Positions 13,421 through 64,000 of a stretch of DNA of 64,000 nt are shown here, piece after piece (positions within the stretch are counted from its first letter, which is position 1; each line of letters opens with the position of its first letter). The stretch lies in assembly GCA_963514005.1 (NCBI GenBank), contig OY740782.1, forward strand, positions 151,094,001-151,158,000, in the 5' to 3' direction. Position numbers and translations under genes: made by a program. The notes beneath the pieces were generated by a model. That model was not told the origin of the DNA and searched no databases. It was given only the letters and a program-made list of their open reading frames with translations. This DNA is from Raja brachyura (lineage: Eukaryota).

Positions 13421-14037
13421 ATCATCATTTATTCACATTTATAGTGGTCAGCACAGAATGTCCTGCAGTCACTGCAGGGAAAGGACTCTATGGACCCGGT
13501 GGCGTGGTTCCCTGAGCAGACTGCCCAAAATGCTTCATCGCCAGAACTCGCCAACAAGCACCAAGACCTGGCTTGGCTGGCGGTGAGGGGAGCACTCCCA
13601 GTCAGATCCTTCCTGCACCGTCGGAACGGGAATAGTGCCCGAGGATTGGCGCACTGCGCATGTTGTTCCATTGTTTAAAAAGGGTTCTAAAAGTAAACCT
13701 AGCAATTCTAGACCGGTTAGTTTGACTTCAGTGGTGGGCAAATTAATGGAAAAGATACTTAGAGATAATATATATAAGTATCTGGATAAAGAGGGTCTAA
13801 TTAGGAACAGTCAACATGGATTTATGCCTGGAAGGTCATGTTTGACTAATCTTCTTGAATTTTTTGAAGAGGTTACTAGGGAAATTGACGAGGGTAAAGC
13901 AGTGGATGTTGTCTATATGGACTTCAGTAAGGCCTTTGACAAGGTTCCTCATGGAAGGTTGGTTAAGAAGGTTCAACTGTTGGGTATAAATGCAGGAATA
14001 GCAAGATGGATTCAACAGTGGCTGAATGGGAGAAGCC

Positions 14038-16603
14038 AGAGGGGCCCGGGGAGCCGTTGGAGACAGAGGGTGGAGCTACCTGCGCTGTGAGTATAAACCT
14101 AGCGCGGGGCTTGCTTTTCACAGAGGCCCGGGGAGCCGTTGGAGACAGAGGGTGGAGCTACCTGCGCTGTGAGTATAAACCTAGCGCGGGGCTTGCTTTT
14201 CACAGAGGCCCGGGGAGCCGTTGGAGACAGAGGGTGGAGCTACCTGCGCTGTGAGTATAAACCTAGCGCGGGGCTTGCTTTTCACAGAGGCCCGGGGAGC
14301 CGTTGGAGACAGAGGGTGGAGCTACCTGCGCTGTGAGTATAAATCTAGCGCGGGGCTTGCTTTTCACAGAGGCCCGGGGAGCCGTTGGAGACAGAGGGTG
14401 GAGCTACCTGCTGTGAGTATAAACCTAGCGCGGGGCTTGCTTTTCACAGAGGCCCGGGGAGCCGTTGGAGACAGAGGGTGGAGCTACCTGCGCTGTGAGT
14501 ATAAACCTAGCGCGGGGCTTGCTGACACAGAGGCCCGGGGAGCCGTTGGAGACACAGGGTGGAGCTACCTGCGCTGTGAGTATAAACCTAGCGCGGGGCT
14601 TGCTGACACAGAGGCCCGGGGAGCCGTTGGAGACACAGGGTGGAGCTACCTGCTGTGAGTATAAACCTAGCGCGGGGCTTGCTGACACAGAGGCCCGGGG
14701 AGCCGTTGGAGACACAGGGTGGAGCTACCTGCGCTGTGAGTATAAACCTAGCGCGGGGCTTGCTGACACAGAGGCCCGGGGAGCCGTTGGAGACACAGGG
14801 TGGAGCTACCTGCGCTGTGAGTATAAACCTAGCGCGGGGCTTGCTGACACAGAGGCCCGGGGAGCCGTTGGAGACACAGGGTGGAGCTACCTGCGCTGTG
14901 AGTATAAACCTAGCGCGGGGCTTGCTGACACAGAGGCCCGGGGAGCCGTTGGAGACACAGGGTGGAGCTACCTGCGCTGTGAGTATAAACCTAGCGCGGG
15001 GCTTGCTGACACAGAGGCCCGGGGAGCCGTTGGAGACACAGGGTGGAGCTACCTGCGCTGTGAGTATAAACCTAGCGCGGGGCTTGCTTTTCACAGAGGC
15101 CCGGGGAGCCGTTGGAGACACAGGGTGGAGCTACCTGCGCTGTGAGTATAAACCTAGCGCGGGGCTTGCTGACACAGAGGCCCGGGGAGCCGTTGGAGAC
15201 ACAGGGTGGAGCTACCTGCGCTGTGAGTATAAACCTAGCGCGGGGCTTGCTGACACAGAGGCCCGGGGAGCCGTTGGAGACAGAGGGTGGAGCTACCTGC
15301 GCTGTGAGTATAAACCTAGCGCGGGGCTTGCTGACACAGAGGCCCGGGGAGCCGTTGGAGACAGAGGGTGGAGCTACCTGCTGTGAGTATAAACCTAGCA
15401 CGGGGCTTGCTTTTCACAGAGGCCCGGGGAGCCGTTGGAGACAGAGGGTGGAGCTACCTGCGCTGTGAGTATAAATCTAGCGCGGGGCTTGCTGACACAG
15501 AGGCCCGGGGAGCCGTTGGAGACAGAGGGTGGAGCTACCTGCGCTGTGAGTATAAACCTAGCACGGGGCTTGCTTTTCACAGAGGCCCGGGGAGCCGTTG
15601 GAGACAGAGGGTGGAGCTACCTGCGCTGTGAGTATAAATCTAGCGCGGGGCTTGCTGACACAGAGGCCCGGGGAGCCGTTGGAGACACAGGGTGGAGCTA
15701 CCTGCGCTGTGAGTATAAACCTAGCGCGGGGCTTGCTGACACAGAGGCCCGGGGAGCCGTTGGAGACACAGGGTGGAGCTACCTGCGCTGTGAGTATAAA
15801 TCTAGCGCGGGGCTTGCTGACACAGAGGCCCGGGGAGCCGTTGGAGACAGAGGGTGGAGCTACCTGCTGTGAGTATAAACCTAGCGCGGGGCTTGCTGAC
15901 ACAGAGGCCCGGGGAGCCGTTGGAGACAGAGGGTGGAGCTACCTGCGCTGTGAGTATAAACCTAGCGCGGGGCTTGCTGACACAGAGGCCCGGGGAGCCG
16001 TTGGAGACAGAGGGTGGAGCTACCTGCGCTGTGAGTATAAACCTAGCGCGGGGCTTGCTGACACAGAGGCCCGGGGAGCCGTTGGAGACAGAGGGTGGAG
16101 CTACCTGCGCTGTGAGTATAAATCTAGCGCGGGGCTTGCTGACACAGAGGCCCGGGGAGCCGTTGGAGACACAGGGTGGAGCTACCTGCGCTGTGAGTAT
16201 AAACCTAGCGCGGGGCTTGCTGACACAGAGGCCCGGGGAGCCGTTGGAGACAGAGGGTGGAGCTACCTGCGCTGTGAGTATAAATCTAGCGCGGGGCTTG
16301 CTGACACAGAGGCCCGGGGAGCCGTTGGAGACACAGGGTGGAGCTACCTGCGCTGTGAGTATAAACCTAGCGCGGGGCTTGCTGACACAGAGGCCCGGGG
16401 AGCCGTTGGAGACAGAGGGTGGAGCTACCTGCGCTGTGAGTATAAATCTAGCGCGGGGCTTGCTGACACAGAGGCCCGGGGAGCCGTGGGTCAGTGAGGG
16501 TGGAGCTACCTGCGCTGTGAGTATAAACCTAGCGCGGGGCTTGCTGACACAGAGGCCCGGGGAGCCGTGGGTCAGTGAGGGTGGAGCTACCTGCGCTGTG
16601 AGT
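14038..16603 (+). repeat. ~32 tandem copies of an 81-bp monomer (79/81/82-bp variants) forming the 5' UTR of the CR1
   Basis: Unit cagaggcccggggagccgttggagaca(c/g)agggtggagctacctgcgctgtgagtataaacctagcgcggggcttgctgaca; the last two units diverge and run into unique UTR sequence. Confidence 0.97.
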
Positions 16604-16884
16604 AGACCAGCAGCTGCAACGTTCCATCTTCCAGTGAGGAAATCTGGTGGGGAATCTGTGTAGCCTCTGATTGGTTGAAGAGGACCAGAGGAAGCAGCTG
16701 ATTGGCTGCAACCCGGGGTTTACATTTCTTCATTTCTGCCTTCAGGCTTAAGGATTCTGGGAGCTAAGGACTCTGGGTGTTAGGGATTCGTTATTTATTA
16801 GTAAAGTTTAAAGAATAAAGTTTTGTGTTTAATTTAAAAAATATATATATATATATATATTTAATAGAGCAATTTGGGAGTAAG

Positions 16885-17832
16885 ATGTCAGTGGAGATTG
16901 GTCCCGTGGTTTGCTCAGCCTGCAACATGTGGGAGATCAGGGATATGGTCGGTGTCCCTGATGACTACATTTGCAGGAAGTGTGTCCAGCTGCAGCTCCT
17001 GGCAGACCGCATGGAACGATTGGAGCTGCGGCTGGATTCATACTGGAGCATCCACGATGCAGAGAAAGTCGTGGACAGCACATACAGCGAGTTGGTCACG
17101 CCACAGGTAAAAGGTAAGAGGACAGAAAGGGAGCGGGTGGCCAATAGCCAGCAAAGCAGTAGGCAGACAGTGCAGGAGTCCCCTGCGGTCATCTCCCTAC
17201 TCAACAGGTTTACCATTTTGGATACTGTTGAGGGAGATGGCTCATCAGGGGAATGCAGCAGCAGCCAAGTTCATGGCACCATGGGTGGCTCTGCAGCACA
17301 TGATGGGGGAAAAAAGAGGGGAAGGGCTATTGTAATAGGGGATTCAATTGTCAGGGGAATAGATAGGCGTTTCTGCGGCCGCAAAAGAGACTCCAGGATG
17401 GTATGTTGCCTCCCTGGTGCAAAGGTCAGGGATGTTACTGAACGGCTGCAGAACATTCTGGAGGGGGAGGGTGAACAGCCAGTTGTCGTGGTGCATATTG
17501 GCACCAACGATATAGGGAAAAAAAGGGATGAGGTCCTACAAGGTGAATTTAGGGAGCTAGGAGATAGACTAAAAAGTAGGACTTCAAAGGTAATAATCTC
17601 TGGATTATTACCAGTACCACGGGCCAGTCAGAGTAGAAATAGGAGGATATTGCAAATGAATACGTGGCTTGAAAAATGGTGCAAGGGGGAGGGATTCAAA
17701 TTTTTAGGGCACTGGAACCATTTCTGGGGGAGGTGGGACCAGTACAAACAGGACGGTCTGCACCTGGGCTGGAATGGAACCAATGTCCTTGGGGGAGTGT
17801 TTGCTAGTGCTGTCGGGGAGGATTTAAACTAA
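16885..17832 (+). CDS. CR1 ORF1p: zinc finger, coiled coil, SGNH/GDSL esterase (315 aa, intact)
   Basis: CSAC..CRKC; LQLLADRMERLELRL; GDSIVR / HIGTND / DGLHL blocks typical of CR1 ORF1 esterases. Confidence 0.93.
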   Translation: MSVEIGPVVCSACNMWEIRDMVGVPDDYICRKCVQLQLLADRMERLELRLDSYWSIHDAEKVVDSTYSELVTPQVKGKRTERERVANSQQSSRQTVQESPAVISLLNRFTILDTVEGDGSSGECSSSQVHGTMGGSAAHDGGKKRGRAIVIGDSIVRGIDRRFCGRKRDSRMVCCLPGAKVRDVTERLQNILEGEGEQPVVVVHIGTNDIGKKRDEVLQGEFRELGDRLKSRTSKVIISGLLPVPRASQSRNRRILQMNTWLEKWCKGEGFKFLGHWNHFWGRWDQYKQDGLHLGWNGTNVLGGVFASAVGEDLN

Positions 17833-20808
17833 TGTGGCAGGGGGATGGGTACAAGAGCAGAGAGGCAGGTGGGTGTAAAACGAGGGTGGAAGCAATAGGG
17901 AGCAAGGTGAAAAGTAAAAGTGGCAGGCAGACAAAACCAGGGCAAAAATCAAAAAGGGCCACTTCTCAACAAAATTGTATAAGGGGTAAGAGCGTAGTAA
18001 AAACAAGCCTGAAGGCCTTGTGTCTCAATGTAAGGAGTATTCGTAATAAGGTGGATGAGTTGAACGTGCAGATAGCTATTAATGAGTATGATATAGTTGG
18101 GATCACGGAGACATGGCTCCAGGGTGACCAAGGCTGGGAGCTGAACATCCAGGGATATTCAATATTCAGGAGGGATAGAGAGAAAGGAAAAGGAGGTGGG
18201 GTAGCGTTGCTGGTTAGAGAGGAGATTAACGCAATGGAAAGTAAGGACATTAGCTGGAGCATGTGGAATCGGTATGGGTAGAGCTGCGAAACACTAAGGG
18301 GCAGAAAACGCTAGTGGGAGTTGTGTACAGGCCACCTAACAGTAGTAGTGAAGTTGGGGATGGTATCAAACAGGAAATTAGAAATGCGTGCAACAAAGGC
18401 AAAACAGTTATAATGGGTGACTTCAATCTACATATAGATTGGGTGAATCAAATTGGCAGGGGCGCTGAGGAAGAGGATTTTTTGGAAAGTATGAGGGATA
18501 GTTACATAAATCAACATGTAGAGGAACCAACGAGAGAGCAGGCTATTTTAGACTGGGTATTGAGTAATGAGGAAGGGTTAGTTAGCAGTCTTATTGTGCG
18601 TGCCCCCTTGGGCAAGAGTGACCATAATATGGTCGAGTTCTTCATTAGGATGGAGAGTGACATTGTTAATTCAGAAACAATGGTTCTGAACTTAAGGAAA
18701 GGTAACTTTGAGGGTATGAGACGTGAATTGGCCAAGATTGACTGGCAATCAATTCTAAAAGGGTTGACGGTGGATACGCAATGGAAGACATTTAAAGACT
18801 GCATGGATGAACTACAAAAATTGTTCATCCCAATTTGGCAAAAGAATAGATCAGGGAAGGTAGTGCATCCGTGGATAACAAGGGAAATCAGGGATAGTAT
18901 CAAAGCAAAGGATGATGCGTAAAAGTAGCCAGAAAAAGCCGCATACCAGAGGACTGGGAGAAATTCAGAGACCAGCAGAGAAGGACAAAGGGCTTGATTA
19001 GGAAAGGAAAAATAGATTATGAAAGAAAACTGGCAGGGAACATAAAAACTGACTGCAAAAGTTTTTATAGATATGTGAAGAGAAAGAGATTAGTTAAAAC
19101 AAATGTAGGTCCTTTGCAGTCAGAAACAGGTGAGTTGATCATGGGGAACAAGGATATGGCGGACCAATTGAATAACTACTTTGGTTCCGTCTTCACTAAG
19201 GAAGACATAAATAATCTGCCGGAAATAGCAGGGGACCGAAGGTCAAAGGAGTACTTGAGTGAAATCCAGGTTAGTCGGGAAGTGGTGTTGGGTAAATTAA
19301 ATGGATTAAAGGCCGATAAATCCCCAGGGCCAGATAGGCTGCATCCCAGAGTACTTAAGGAAGTAGCTCCGGAAATAGTGGATGCATTAGTGATAATCTT
19401 TCAAAACTCTTTAGATTCTGGAGTAGTTCCTGAGGATTGGCGGGTAGCAAACGTAACCCCTCTTTTTAAGAAGGGGGGGAGAGAGAAAACGGGGAATTAC
19501 AGACCAGTTAGTCTAACATCGGTAGTGGGGAAACTGCTAGAGTCAGTTATTAAAGATGGGATAGCAGCACATTTGGAAAGTGGTGAAATCATTGGACAAA
19601 GTCAGCATGGATTTACGAAAGGTAAATCATGTCTGACGAATCTTGTGGAATTTTTCGAGGATGTAACTAGTAGCGTGGATGGGGGAGAACCAGTGGATGT
19701 GCTGTATCTGGACTTCCAGAAGGCTTTCGACAAGGTCCCACATAAGCGATTAGTATATAAACTTAAAGCATATGGCATTGGGGGTTCAGTATTGATGTGG
19801 ATAGAGAACTGGCTGGCAAACAGGAAGCAAAGAGTAGGAGTTAACGGGTCGTTTTAACAATGGCAGGTAGTGACTAGTGGGGTACCGCAAGGCTCAGTGC
19901 TGGGACCCCAGCTATTTACAATATACATAAATGATCTGGATGAGGGAATTGAAGGCAATATCTCCAAGTTTGCGGATGACACTAAGCTGGGGGGCAGTGT
20001 TAGCTGTGAGGAGGATGCTAGGAGAATGCAATGTGACTTGGATAGGCTGGGTGAGTGGGCAAATGTTTGGCAGATGCAGTATAATGTGGATAAATGTGAG
20101 GTTATCCACTTTGGTGGCAAAAATAGGAAAACCGACTACTATCTAAATGGTGGCCGATTAGGAAAAGGGGAGATGCAGCGCGACCTGGGTGTCATGGTAC
20201 ACCAGTCATTGAAAGTAGGCATGCAGGTACAGCAGGCAGTGAAGAAAGCCAATGGTATGTTAGCTTTCATAGCAAAAGGATTTGAGTATAGGAGCAGGGA
20301 GGTTCTACTTCAGTTGTATAGGGTCTTGGTGAGGCCACACCTGGAGTATTGCGTACAGTTCTGGTCTCCAAATCTGAGGAAGGACATTATTGCCATAGAG
20401 GGAGTGCAGCGAAGGTTCACCAGACTGATTCCTGGGATGTCAGGACTGTCTTATGAACAAAGACTGCATAGACTCGGTTTATACTCTCTAGAATTTAGGA
20501 GATTGAGAGGGGATCTTATAGAAACTTACAAGATTCTTAAGGGGTTGGACAGGCTAGATGCAGGAAGATTGTTCCCGATGTTGGGGAGGTCCAGGACAAG
20601 GGGTCACAGCTTAAGGATAAGGGGGAAATCCTTTAGGACCGAGATGAGAAGGAATTTTTTCACACAGAGAGTGGTGTGTCTCTGGAACTCTCTGCCACAG
20701 AGGGTAGTTGAGGCCAGTTCATTGGCTATATTTAAGAGGGAGTTAGATGTGGCCCTTGTGGCTAAGGGGATCAGAGGGTATGGAGAGAAGGCAGGTACGG
20801 GATACTGA
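17832..20808 (+). pseudogene. CR1 ORF2 (APE endonuclease-RT), disrupted
   Basis: NVRSI, GITETWL, GDFN, SDH (APE); [12 protein letters not shown] (RT). One frameshift near 18260 and stops at about 18920 and 19855. Confidence 0.93.
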
Positions 20809-22676
20809 GTTGGATGATCAGCCATGATCATATTGAATGGCGGTGCAGGCTCGAAGGGCCGAATGGCCTACTCCTGCACCTAATTTCTATGTTTCTATGT
20901 TTCTATGTAATGGTGGATGGCTGTTTGTCGGGTTGGAGGCAGGTGACTAGTGGGGTGCCTCAGGGATCTGTGTTGGGTCCTTTGTTGTTTGTCATGTACA
21001 TCAATGATCTGGATGAAGGGGTGGTAAATTGGATTAGTAAGTATGCAGATGATACCAAGATAGGGGGTGTTGTGGATAATGAAGAGGATTTCCAAAGTCC
21101 ACAGAGTGATTTAGGCCAGTTGGAAAAATGAGCTGAAAGATGGCAGATGGAGTTTAATGCTGATAAATGTGAGGTGCTACATCTTGGCAGGACAAATCAA
21201 AATAGGACGCACATGGTAAACGGTAGGGAATTGAAGAATACAGTATAACAGAGGGATCTGGGAATAACCATGCATAGTTCCTTGAAGGTGGAATCTCATA
21301 TAGATAGGGTGGTAAAGAAAGCTTTTGGTATGCTAGCCTTTATAAATCAGAGCATTGAGTATAGAAGCTGGGATGTAATGTTAAAATTGTACAAGGCATT
21401 GGTGAGACCAAATCTGGAGTATGGTGTACAATTTTGGTCGCCCAATTATAGGAAGGATGTCAACAATATAGAGAGGGTACAGAGGAGATTTACTAGAATG
21501 TTACCTGGATTTCAACAGCTAAGTTACAGAGATAGGTTGAATAAATTAGTTCTTTATTCTCTGGAGCGCAGAAGGTTAAGGGGGGACTTGATAGAGGTCT
21601 TTAAAATGATGAGAGGGATAGACAGAGTTGATGTGGACAAGCTTTTCCCTTTGAGAATAGGGAAGATTCAAACAAGAGGACATGACTTTAGAATTAAGGG
21701 ACAGGTTTAGGGGTAACATGAGGGGGAACTTCTTTACTCAGAGAGTGATAGCGGTGTGGAATGAGCTTCCAGTGGAAGTGGTGGCGGCAGGTTCGTTGGT
21801 ATCATTTAAAAATAAATTGGATAGGCATATGGATGAGAAGAGTATGGAGGGTTATGGCATGAGTGCAGGCAGGTGGGACTAAGGGAAAAAGGTTGTTCGG
21901 CACGGACTTGAAGGGCCGAGATGGCCTGTTTCCGTGCTGTAATTGTTATATGGTTATATGGTTATATAACCTCACTGCCAGCGCACGCTGCCCTCGGGAC
22001 GGCTGCTATGGAGAGGAGACGGTTGCCCACCTCTTTGCAGAGTGTGGATTTGCCCAAAGAGTCTGGAGAAAAATGCAAGGGTCCCTGGTACGCTTTATTC
22101 CAAACAGCTCCGTCACAGAGGACTCTGTGATTTACGGACTGTTCCCAGGGACACATTCAGAGACTGACATCAAGTGCTGCTGGTGGGTTATCAACTCGGT
22201 GAAAGACGCTCTTTGGTCTGCCCGAGCGTTGTTCACCACCCAGCAGAGCGAGATGTCCGTCGGGGAATGTTGCCGACTGGCCCACTGCAGACTGCAGGAG
22301 TACGTGCTGAGGGACGCACTGAAGCTCGGTGCAGCCAACGCCAAGGCTCGGTGGGGGAGGGCCACAGTCTAGGGTCCTTCCGCTGCTGGATATGGGGGGC
22401 ACAGTATGGTGGAGACGCCCCTCAAAATAAGGGAAGGTACCCTATGCCGGGGGGCCACATGAGTGGCACGGGTGGGGGATCGATTTGTGAAATTTGAAAA
22501 ATGTGTATAGACTGTATGGAACAATTTGTATAGCCTCCGGAAATGTCGGATGGATTTTTCGCACGGTTGATGTATTGTATATATTTATTACTTGAATAAA
22601 GCCTATTTTGAAATATAAAAAACATTTATACTCTCTGACACGTCATTTTTACCATGTTATGCTGTTTATCATATGC

Positions 22677-59359: not shown

Positions 59360-62300
59360 AACCTGTCTAATCTATGTGCCTGTCCAAGTGTCTTTTAAAT
59401 GTTGCGATAGACCTGCCTCAACTACCTCCTCCGGCAGCTCATTCCATACACAAACCCTCTGTATGGAAAAGTTACACCACAGATTCCTATGTTTAAGAAA
59501 GAACTGCAGATGCTGGAAAAATTGAAGGTAGACATAAAACCTGCAGAAACTCAGCGGGTGAGGCAGCATCTATGGAGCGAAGGAATATGCGACGTTTCGG
59601 GTCGAGACCCTTCAGATTGAAGAAGGGTCAGTCTAAAGAAGGGTTTCGACCTTAACGTCGCCTATTCCTTTGCTCCATAGATGCTGCCTCATCCGCTGAA
59701 TTTATCCAGCTTTTTTGTATACCTCCTATTAAATCTTTCCCCATCACCTTGAACCGATGACCTCTGGCAAGGAACTCTGTGCAACTACTTGATCTATTCC
59801 TGGTATGATTTTGTACACCTCTATAAGATCATCCCACATCCTCCTACGCGCCAAGGAATAAAGTTAAAATGACTATAATACATAACGCAACATAATACGC
59901 TACGACACATAATACATATAATACACTATGACATGATTGTTAACACACCCAAATACAATATAATACACTGCAACATACCTTAACACAATATAACACACTA
60001 TAATACAATATAACACACTGTAATACAAAATGTGGTTGATGCCCCTCACCAAGATGGTCGCCATCGCTACAAACGCCTCTCACCAAGATGGCTTCCGTAC
60101 TCTTCAGTCACACCCACTTCCACTAATTGCCCTGCTCCAAGATGGCAGCAGCCTCCCCTCAGTCATTCACTTGCTGCAAATGCCCCGCACCAAGGTGGCT
60201 GCCTCAGTCACACTCACTCCCTGCTGATGCCCCGCAGTGTCCTTTGTGACACCCACCTGGTCATACGGTGATGACGGGTGGGACGGTCGAGCCCGTGGGG
60301 AGAGACAAGGGAAGAGAGGGGGGCAGGGCTGGGGGAGGGGTGTCACGGAGTCACACAAATTTATCACCCTCTGACTTAAAGAAATTCCTCCCCATTTCCT
60401 TTCTAAAGGAACGCTCCTTAATTCTGAGGCTGTGCCCTCTGGTCCGAGACTCTCCCACTAGTGGAAACATCCTCTCCACATCCACTCTTTCCAAGCCTTT
60501 CACTATTTGGGAAAGTTTTAATGAGGCCCCCCCACCCCCACTCTAAACACACTGTAATACAAAATGTGGTTGATGCCCCTCACCAAGATAGTCGCCATCG
60601 CTACAAACGCCGCTCACCAAGATGGCTTCCGTACTCTTCAGTCACAGTCACTTCCACTAATTGCCCTGCACCAAGATGGCAGCAGCCTCCCCTCAGTCAG
60701 CCACTTGCTGCAAATGCCCCGCACCAAGGTGGCTTCCTCAGTCACACTCACTCCCTGCTGATGCACCGCAGTGTCCTTTGTGACCCGCAGTGTCCTTTGT
60801 GACCCCCACCTGGTCATATGGTGATGACGGGTGGGACGGTCGAGCCCGAGGGCTGGGGGAGGGGCGTCACGGAGTCACACAAATTTATCACTCTCTGACT
60901 AAAGAAATTCCTCCACATTTTCTTTCTAAAGGAACGAACGCTCTTTAATTCTGAGGCTGTGCCCTCTGGTCCGAGACTCTCCCACTAGTGGAAACATCCT
61001 CTCCACATCCACTCTATCCAAGCCTTTCATTATTCGGGAAAGTTTTAATGTGGACCCCCCCACTCTTCTAAACTCCAGTGATTCCAGGCCCAGTGCAGAC
61101 AAACGCTCATCGTACATTAACCTGGGAACGTTCTTGTAAATCTCCTCTGCAGTGTCAAGCACTTCCTTCCTCTGATATGCGACCAAAAACTGCTCACAAT
61201 GGCCCATGTCCCTCGAAAGCTGTCTAATCTATGTGCCTATCCAAGTATCTTTTAAATGTTGCGATAGACCTGCCTCAACTACCTCCTCCGGCAGCTCATT
61301 CCGTACACAAAACCTCTGTCTGGAAAAGTTACACCACAGATTCCTATGTTTAAGAAAGAACTGCAGATGCTGGAAAATTTGAAGGTAGACATAAAACCTG
61401 CAGAAACTCAGCGGGTGAGGCAGCATCTATGGAGCGAAGGAATATGCGGCGTTTCGGGTCGAGACCCTTCAGATTGAACAAGGGTCAGTTTAAAGAAGGG
61501 TTCAGACCTGTAATGTCGCCTATTCCTTTGCTCCATAGATGCTGCCTCATCCGCTGAATTTATCCAGCTTTTTTGTATACCTCCAATGAAATCTTTCCCC
61601 ATCACCTTAAACCGATGTCCTCTGGTCCTCGATTCCCCTACTCTGGCAAGGGACTCTGTGCATCTACTCGCTCTATTCCTGTTGTGATTTTGTACACCTC
61701 TATAAGATCATCCCACATCCTCCTGCGCGCCAAGGAATAAAGTTAAAATGCACTATAATACATAACGCAACATAATACGCTACGACACATAATACATATA
61801 ATACACTATGACATGATTGTTAACACACCCAAATACAATATAATACACTGCAACATACCTTAACACAATATAACACACTATAATACAATATAACACACTG
61901 TAATACAAAATGTGGTTGATGCCCCTCACCAAGATGGTCGCCATCGCTACAAACGCCCCTCACCAAGATGGCTTCCGTACTCTTCAGTCACAGTCACTTC
62001 CACTAATTGCCCTGCACCAAGATGGCAGCAGCCTCCCCTCAGTCAGCCACTTGCTGCAAATGCCCCGCACCAAGATGGCTGCCTCAGTCACACTCACTCT
62101 CTGCTGATGCCCCGCAGTGTCCTTTGTGACACCCACCTGGTCATACGGTGATGACGGGTGGGACGGTCGAGCCCGTGGGGGGAGACAAGGGAAGAGAAGG
62201 GGGCAGGGCTGGGGGAGGGGTGTCACGGAGTCACACAAATTTATCACCCTCTGACTTTAAGAAATTCCTCCCCATTTCCTTTCTAAAGGAACGCTCCTTA

Positions 62301-64000
62301 ATTCTGAGGCTGTGCCCTCTGGTCCGAGACTCTCCCACTAGTGGAAACATTCTCTCCACATCCACTCTATCCAAGCCTTTCACTATTCGGGAAAGTTTTA
62401 ATGAGGCCCCCCCACCCCCCCCCACTCTAAACACACTGTAATACAAAATGTGGTTGATGCCCCTCACCAAGATGGTCGCCATCGCTACAAACGCCCCTCA
62501 CCAAGATGGCTTCCGTACTCTTCAGTCAGTCACTTCCACTAATTGCCCTGCACTAAGATGGCAGCAGCCTCCCTTCAGTCAGTCACTTGCTGCAAATGCC
62601 CCGCACCAAGGTGGCTGCATCAATCACACTCACTCCCTGCTGATGCCCTGCAGTGTCCTTTGTGACCCGCAGTGTCCTTTGTGACCCCCACCTGGTCATA
62701 CGGTGATGACGGGTGGGACGGTCGAGCCCGAGGGCTGGGGAAGGGGAGTCACGGAGTCACACAAATTTATCACCCTCTGACTAAAGAAATTCCTCCACAT
62801 TTTCTTTCTAAAGGAACGAACGCTCTTTAATTCTTAGGCTGTGCCCTCTGGTCCGAGACTCTCCCGCTAGAGGAAACATCCTCTCCACATCCACTCTATC
62901 CAAGCCTTTCACTATTCGGGAAAGTTTTAATGTGGACCCCCCCCCCCCACTCTTCTAAACTCCAGTGATTCCAGGCCCAGTGCAGACAAACGCTCATCGT
63001 ACATTAACCTGGGATCGTTCTTGTAAATCTCCTCTGCAGTGTCAAGCACTTCCTTCCTCTGATATGGGACCAAAAACTGCTCACAATGGCCCATGTCCCT
63101 CGAAACCTGTCTAATCTATGTGCCTGTCCAAGTATCTTTTAAATGTTGCGATAGACCTGCCTCAACTACCTCCTCCGGCAGCTCATTCCGTACACAAAAC
63201 CTCTGTATGGAAAAGTTACACCACAGATTCCTATGTTTAAGAAAGAACTGCAGATGCTGGAAAATTTGAAGGTAGACATAAAACCTGCAGAAACTCAGCG
63301 GGTGAGGCAGCATCTATGGAGCGAAGGAATATGCGGCGTTTCGGGTCGAGACCCTTCAGATTGAACAAGGGTCAGTTTAAAGAAGGGTTCAGACCTGTAA
63401 TGTCGCCTATTCCTTTGCTCCATAGATGCTGCCTCATCCGCTGAATTTATCCAGCTTTTTTGTATACCTCCAATGAAATCTTTCCCCATCACCTTAAACC
63501 GATGTCCTCTGGTCCTCGATTCCCCTACTCTGGCAAGGGACTCTGTGCATCTACTCGCTCTATTCCTGTCGTGATTTTGTACACCTCTATAAGATCATCC
63601 CACATCCTCCTGCGCGCCAAGGAATAAAGTTAAAATGCACTATAATACATAACGCAACATAATACGCTACGACAGATAATACATATAATATACTATGCCA
63701 TGATTGTTAACACACCCAAATACAATATAATACACTGTAACACACCTTAACACAATATAACACACTATAATACAATATAACACACTGTAATACAAAATAT
63801 GGTTGATGCCCCTCACCAAGATGGTCGCCATCGCTACAAACGCCCCTCACCAAGATAGCTTCCGTACTCTTCAGTCAGTCACTTCCACTAATTGCCCTGC
63901 ACCAAGATGGCAGCAGCCTCCCCTCAGTCAGTCACTTGCTGCAAATGCCCCGCACCAAGGTGCTGCCTCAGTCACACTCACTCTCTGCTGATGCCCCACA
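59360..64000. repeat. Tandem duplication array, unit ~1.86-1.89 kb (2 complete plus 1 partial; diverged precursor unit at 57160-58590)
   Basis: Near-identical ORFs recur at 59372, 61229 and 63116. Each unit contains CR1 pieces, a Penelope palindrome, an AT/AC minisatellite and two CAAGATGG-rich blocks. Confidence 0.93.

Follow-up and report, generated by a model that had tools for sequence, protein, structure and literature searches.

In Raja brachyura, a young family of CR1-type LINEs has at its 5' end a tandem array of 81-bp units that, judging from the DNA, quite probably acts as a row of TATA-box promoters, with one TATA presumably lost in each cycle of copying. The copy that led us to this family lies in a stretch of 64,000 nucleotides (contig OY740782.1, positions 151,094,001 to 151,158,000 of the forward strand), referred to in what follows as the window, and is organized as listed here in window coordinates.

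13630..14043, + strand: host CR1 of another family, comprising the left part of an ORF2 that is truncated at its 5' end (approximate start; the breakpoint is set by 8 host-family copies)
14044..16604, + strand: array of 31 TATA-bearing units of 79-82 bp and a last partial unit
14092..14097, + strand: first TATAAA (one per unit; the last at 16522-16527)
14120..14124, + strand: putative first start zone, ACAGA, main A at 14122, i.e. T of TATA + 30 (placed from the clustering of family 5' ends and the extra G)
16605..16884, + strand: tether with reverse CCAAT boxes at 16670 and 16701, short 16-bp repeats and an AT-rich stretch
16885..17832, + strand: ORF1, 315 aa, intact, Cys-pair N-terminus and SGNH/GDSL esterase (PF13472, PDB 4C1B)
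17832..20808, + strand: ORF2, endonuclease and reverse transcriptase, broken by 2 frameshifts and 1 stop
20809..20907, + strand: 3' UTR and (TTTCTATG)3 tail
20908..21960, + strand: right-hand part and tail of the host CR1 (approximate end)

The first-pass annotation had described a CpG-rich tandem array of TATA-containing monomers, and each element of that description holds. TRF places the array at 14043-16604 with a period of 81, 31.6 copies and 97% matches, corresponding to 32 units of 79-82 bp, 31 of which contain TATAAA; the GC content is 0.62 and the CpG observed/expected ratio 0.65, as against 0.43 in the remainder of the window. The putative start zone recurs in all units, with the last main A at 16551. 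The 3'-most monomers, units 31-32, carry a divergent GTGGGTCAGTGAGGGT segment, and the two reverse CCAAT boxes read ATTGG in a tether that is 280 bp long in this copy. The proposed break of the host at 14043 and its resumption at 20908 are borne out by 8 host-family copies in which AGAAGCC and TAATGG are separated by AGAG(A/G)G, establishing a blunt insertion with neither target duplication nor loss of host sequence; nor was a regular target duplication found consistently across the loci of the family.

By its domains and tail the window element is a CR1-type LINE inserted into another CR1. Pfam searches return PF13472 in ORF1 and PF03372, PF14529 and PF00078 (AP endonuclease and reverse transcriptase) in ORF2. 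ORF1 matches PDB 4C1B, the zebrafish ZfL2-1 ORF1, with E 2e-29; it carries Cys pairs that by eye resemble a zinc finger, and its named homologs are from sharks and rays. The ORF1 stop and the ORF2 start overlap in TAATG at 17830-17834, the stop-restart arrangement of SART1 and ZfL2-1. Several traits of the CR1 clade are present: an AP endonuclease-reverse transcriptase ORF2, an SGNH esterase ORF1 with Cys pairs and a short tandem-repeat tail in place of poly(A). A ~60-bp stretch near the ORF2 start (17918-17980), missing from many other copies, divides subfamilies. The host CR1 itself is nested in a third element (window ~13480-13630 and 21970-22372), giving three nested levels, and the right part of this third element encodes a Cys/His knuckle, presumably of the kind typical of L1/Tx1 ORF2 ends. 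Elsewhere in the window the same set of short repeats occurs at 59875-60805 and 61755-62687, ~1.88 kb apart, reflecting a local tandem duplication.

Only 6 differences in 4 kb separate the body of the window copy from those of its nearest relatives, so that the copy must be very young; both frames are open in 33 of the 84 bodies compared. Its tether shows 3 differences to other subfamilies as against 7-9 to most of its own clade, and its unit types are unlike the usual type of that clade, which together suggest that the copy carries a 5' end swapped in from elsewhere. Among near-identical bodies the order of units is shared only in part.

In order to establish how the array relates to the element we used a sample that is free of score ranking, namely every exact tether site on contigs C1 and C2 (72 of the 431 in the genome). 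A monomer lies immediately upstream of the tether at 69 of these. The 68 sites with a visible end have a median of 3 TATA units (range 0-80), where for at least three loci (L186, L240 and L241) the scored end is not the true one, a contiguous array having been cut by a later insertion. At these three loci, all on C1, a common foreign sequence meets the array at an identical point, so that the interrupted array itself would appear to have been duplicated or copied. When loci were picked by the monomer, from 150 of 358 matches listed, all 31 continue into the tether and 30 extend as far as ORF1. When they were picked by the ORF1 start, 32 of 40 have monomers, and the other 8 are simply truncated within the tether. 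The 5' monomer array is a family trait of this young CR1-type LINE, fixed at the front of the element. Exact TATA-unit matches number 3639 genome-wide. Contigs from runs labelled as other organisms also span monomer, tether and ORF1, one of them with a 79-nt tandem unit.

The 5' ends of the copies fall in a sharp register. Of the 68 ends in the C1 and C2 set, 37 lie at -2 to +2 of the A in CAC|AGAGG (p 6e-27 against an expectation of 5 of 81 positions) and 21 exactly on the A of AGAGG, which is 29-30 nt past the T of TATAAA. In a second set, picked by score and overlapping the first, 44 of 82 ends are in register, one array running off its stretch and three duplicates having been dropped. The first-pass annotation had predicted starts 25-30 nt after TATAAA, in good agreement with the observed clustering of ends 28-32 nt past the T of TATA. 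These ends also carry an extra G. Although the template letter before both main A's is C, 20 of the 23 starts at these two positions have a preceding G, compared with 4 of the 31 that lie outside the start zone (p 4e-8). In the genome as a whole, a letter other than C occupies this position at 136 sites, and among the first 100 listed 83 have G, 11 T and 6 A; 27 of 30 such sites inspected are array starts, 24 of these with G. An untemplated G at full-length 5' ends has been attributed to reverse transcription of the cap (PMC4859970). Taken together, the register and the untemplated G point to capped Pol II transcripts, which likely begin downstream of a TATA box that the resulting copy lacks. 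A Pol III promoter was considered and rejected, on the strength of the cap-like G and of T-runs in the body.

The remaining 31 of the 68 ends lie outside the five-base zone and are read as truncations; they include the window copy, which starts 4 nt past the main family start (+4) with no clear extra G. Of the 37 copies in register, 9 retain a single TATA and 3 lack it altogether, which is what a ratchet that consumes promoters would leave as run-down products. In the L185, L187, L209, L093 and C25 arrays the true start is preceded by short re-copied pieces of the first 10-25 bases of the unit, which suggests that the template was switched at the 5' end in the course of insertion.

Of 800 units across the family, 786 have an intact TATAAA and 784 are free of ATG. 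The inverted repeat GCGCT..AGCGC that had been proposed to enclose the TATA box does flank it in most units of the window copy; of the 800 family units only 313 retain it in full, and we have rejected it as a functional part. A sister family with an ORF1 84-93% identical (128 motif matches, 30 examined) has a homologous unit, identical in 64 of 86 columns, at 19 of the 30 loci, with 1-3 starts each. At the same spacing it carries TTTAAAAA, TTATAAAA or TGTTTAAA, i.e. an AT-rich box with changed letters; several of its copies begin G-AGAG, and both CCAAT boxes are retained. A distant CR1 family, with ORF1 ~35-50% identical, has a 36-bp tandem repeat within its 5' UTR right before ORF1 at 2 of 29 loci examined, with 25 and 14 copies at L138:499-1398 and L150:906-1415, respectively (ORF1 orientation).

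In the explanation that we favor each TATA box of the array would start a capped RNA ~30 nt downstream, that is, in the next unit. As the active TATA would not be part of the RNA, a daughter should have fewer TATA boxes than its parent, by at least one, and a lineage would end in dead copies lacking any TATA if its arrays were not lengthened again by slippage or unequal exchange. Units free of AUG would permit a long leader, and the CCAAT pair of the tether may provide activator sites.

An alternative is that each unit is an internal promoter, as with YY1 in mammalian L1, whose downstream elements, or the CCAAT boxes of the tether, set the start, with the TATA an accessory and the outermost unit firing without loss. 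Indeed, a downstream element within the unit could fix the same start, the motif that sets it is not distinguishable from static 5'-end data, the sequence directly past the start is well conserved between the two families, and the starts of mouse L1 cluster near YY1 sites (PMC10620060). We nevertheless regard such a promoter as unlikely, since TATAAA lies at the canonical distance from the start and is conserved in nearly all of the 800 units (786), the sister family preserves an AT box at the same spacing with its letters changed, and neither a GCCAT nor a YY1-type CCAT core is seen by eye in the common units. A quite different possibility is that the clustering of 5' ends reflects a pause or preferred truncation by the reverse transcriptase, with a non-specific G, and that the array is a passive UTR minisatellite. 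Several junctions with other extra or re-copied letters (L185, L187, L209) and a tailing of the ends to +10 would fit such an origin, which is made very improbable by the specificity of the G for A-starts (20/23 as against 4/31) and by the spacing to TATAAA, which would have to be a coincidence and one that recurs in the sister family.

The units might also serve splicing, with GTGAGT donors (found in 784 of 800 units and conserved in the sister family) and acceptors in TTTTCACAG or in the tether, where a strong acceptor-like stretch ends at 16746, removing the array from the mRNA. Against this, exact-pattern searches gave 0 genomic copies with a donor-to-tether junction and, across 314 loci (1.79 Mb, overlaps included), no instance of either junction, counts that concern genomic copies and that spliced RNAs translated and not copied would escape. 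Contigs of presumed-RNA runs, which cannot show starts, contain no splice joint either, and the span within a unit is just 37 nt; we consider splicing very improbable. The least probable of the alternatives is a monomer that is an independent satellite, within or beside which CR1 copies happen to lie. Matches to the TATA unit are biased in strand, 2376 forward and 1263 reverse, with tethers balanced at 210 and 221, so that a very long unlocated array may exist; a search for one turned up arrays of 185, 108, 80 and 48 units, which explain the excess only in part. However, every array examined, those of 80, 108 and 185 units included, ends at the tether, and no free satellite was found among them, the longest, up to 14.6 kb, still being joined to an element; a role of the array as a seed for satellite DNA, as proposed earlier, is conjectural. 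The first-pass annotation had named an unlinked satellite, and full-length copies lacking the monomer, as findings that would count against it. Neither refutes it, given the linkage at 31 of 31 monomer loci and 69 of 72 tether sites and the truncation within the tether of the ORF1-picked copies without monomers.

How might an array of consumable promoters be replenished? Array lengths change at the DNA level once an element has inserted, with units both gained and lost. Of two C25 copies that share a flank, one has 108 units and the other 185, with 5 differences in 2 kb downstream and 24 in 3 kb upstream, and other same-flank sets have 31/21, 25/27 and 6/3 units. The unequal counts establish that length changes in place, a conclusion that is unaltered if the pairs are alleles rather than duplicates. 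In an 80-unit array beginning G-AGAGG a block of 22 units (1754 bp) is present twice with zero differences, in a copy whose body is 1.0% from its nearest sampled relative, and identical blocks of 17 and 14 units occur in other arrays, the copy with the 14-unit block being at least 0.5% from the relatives compared. Such perfect blocks could reflect an assembly artefact or an unsampled closer parent, 84 bodies having been compared where at least 431 tethers exist. The earlier suggestion of a self-renewing array gains support from these same-flank duplicates and identical blocks. The related suggestion that the 79/82-bp variants mark block amplification fared less well: the variants do recur, as family-wide alleles, and the window array has no repeated block of at least 3 identical units. 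No correlation was seen between the length of an array and divergence (rho 0.04, n = 73). Regrowth through re-priming once the cap has been copied found no support; it would put G for C within arrays, where the internal variants at this site are 8 T, 3 G and 2 A.

The closest parallel is with mouse L1, in which monomers are followed by a tether (PMC5381506). As in L1Md A/Tf/Gf, variable tandem CpG-rich units precede a tether, ~250-280 bp long, ahead of ORF1 and 5' ends cluster at one position of the unit. Mouse daughters have 0.6-1.8 units fewer than their donors, with starts near YY1 (PMC10620060), and young families average 3-4 units (PMC9022269). A 50-unit outlier has been ascribed to unequal crossing-over, the mechanism of monomer rebuilding has been called unclear, and change of array length in place is said to have lacked quantitative support in mouse (PMC6454616). 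Unlike mouse L1, the present element is of the CR1 type, with an esterase ORF1 and an 8-bp tail that place it outside the L1 clade. Its unit is 81 bp as against ~200 in mouse, and its TATA lies upstream of the start, while the mouse element has a YY1 site near or after it; the word TATA is absent from the main text of those mouse L1 monomer papers that were checked for it. Furthermore, arrays here reach 185 units and the same-flank duplicates provide direct evidence of length change in place. By analogy, a CR1-type element would appear to work like the mouse monomer promoters without being a member of that system.

CR1-clade LINEs with an esterase ORF1, such as ZfL2-1 and HER1, the latter a LINE of sharks and rays (listed in PMC3747384), have in common with the present element the endonuclease-reverse transcriptase ORF2, the 8-bp tandem tail and the lack of a target duplication. 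No description of a 5' monomer array was found for them in the literature searched. A promoter upstream of the 5' end, or repeated at it, offsets loss on copying in two further elements as well. Drosophila HeT-A has an upstream promoter borrowed from the 3' end of a neighbour, and Dictyostelium TRE5-A has A-module repeats at its 5' end that are described as internal promoters; in these respects the present family would differ from both.

The general view is that LINEs depend on internal promoters, since a copy does not inherit sequence that lies 5' of the transcription start. The present CR1, from a vertebrate, appears to rely on a TATA box upstream of its start, at the price of one unit per cycle. 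In the literature searched on CR1 and other non-LTR elements with tandem or TATA features we found no such array described, and Repbase or Dfam may already record it. Whether in the CR1s of cartilaginous fish every jump burns at least one unit of upstream TATA promoter, so that a lineage would survive only via re-expanded or subfamily-swapped arrays and the instability of the array would pick the masters, is a proposition that we hold to be evenly balanced. How monomer promoters are rebuilt becomes directly testable in this family, whose young copies number in the hundreds, whose starts show a sharp register and whose same-flank duplicates differ by up to 77 units.
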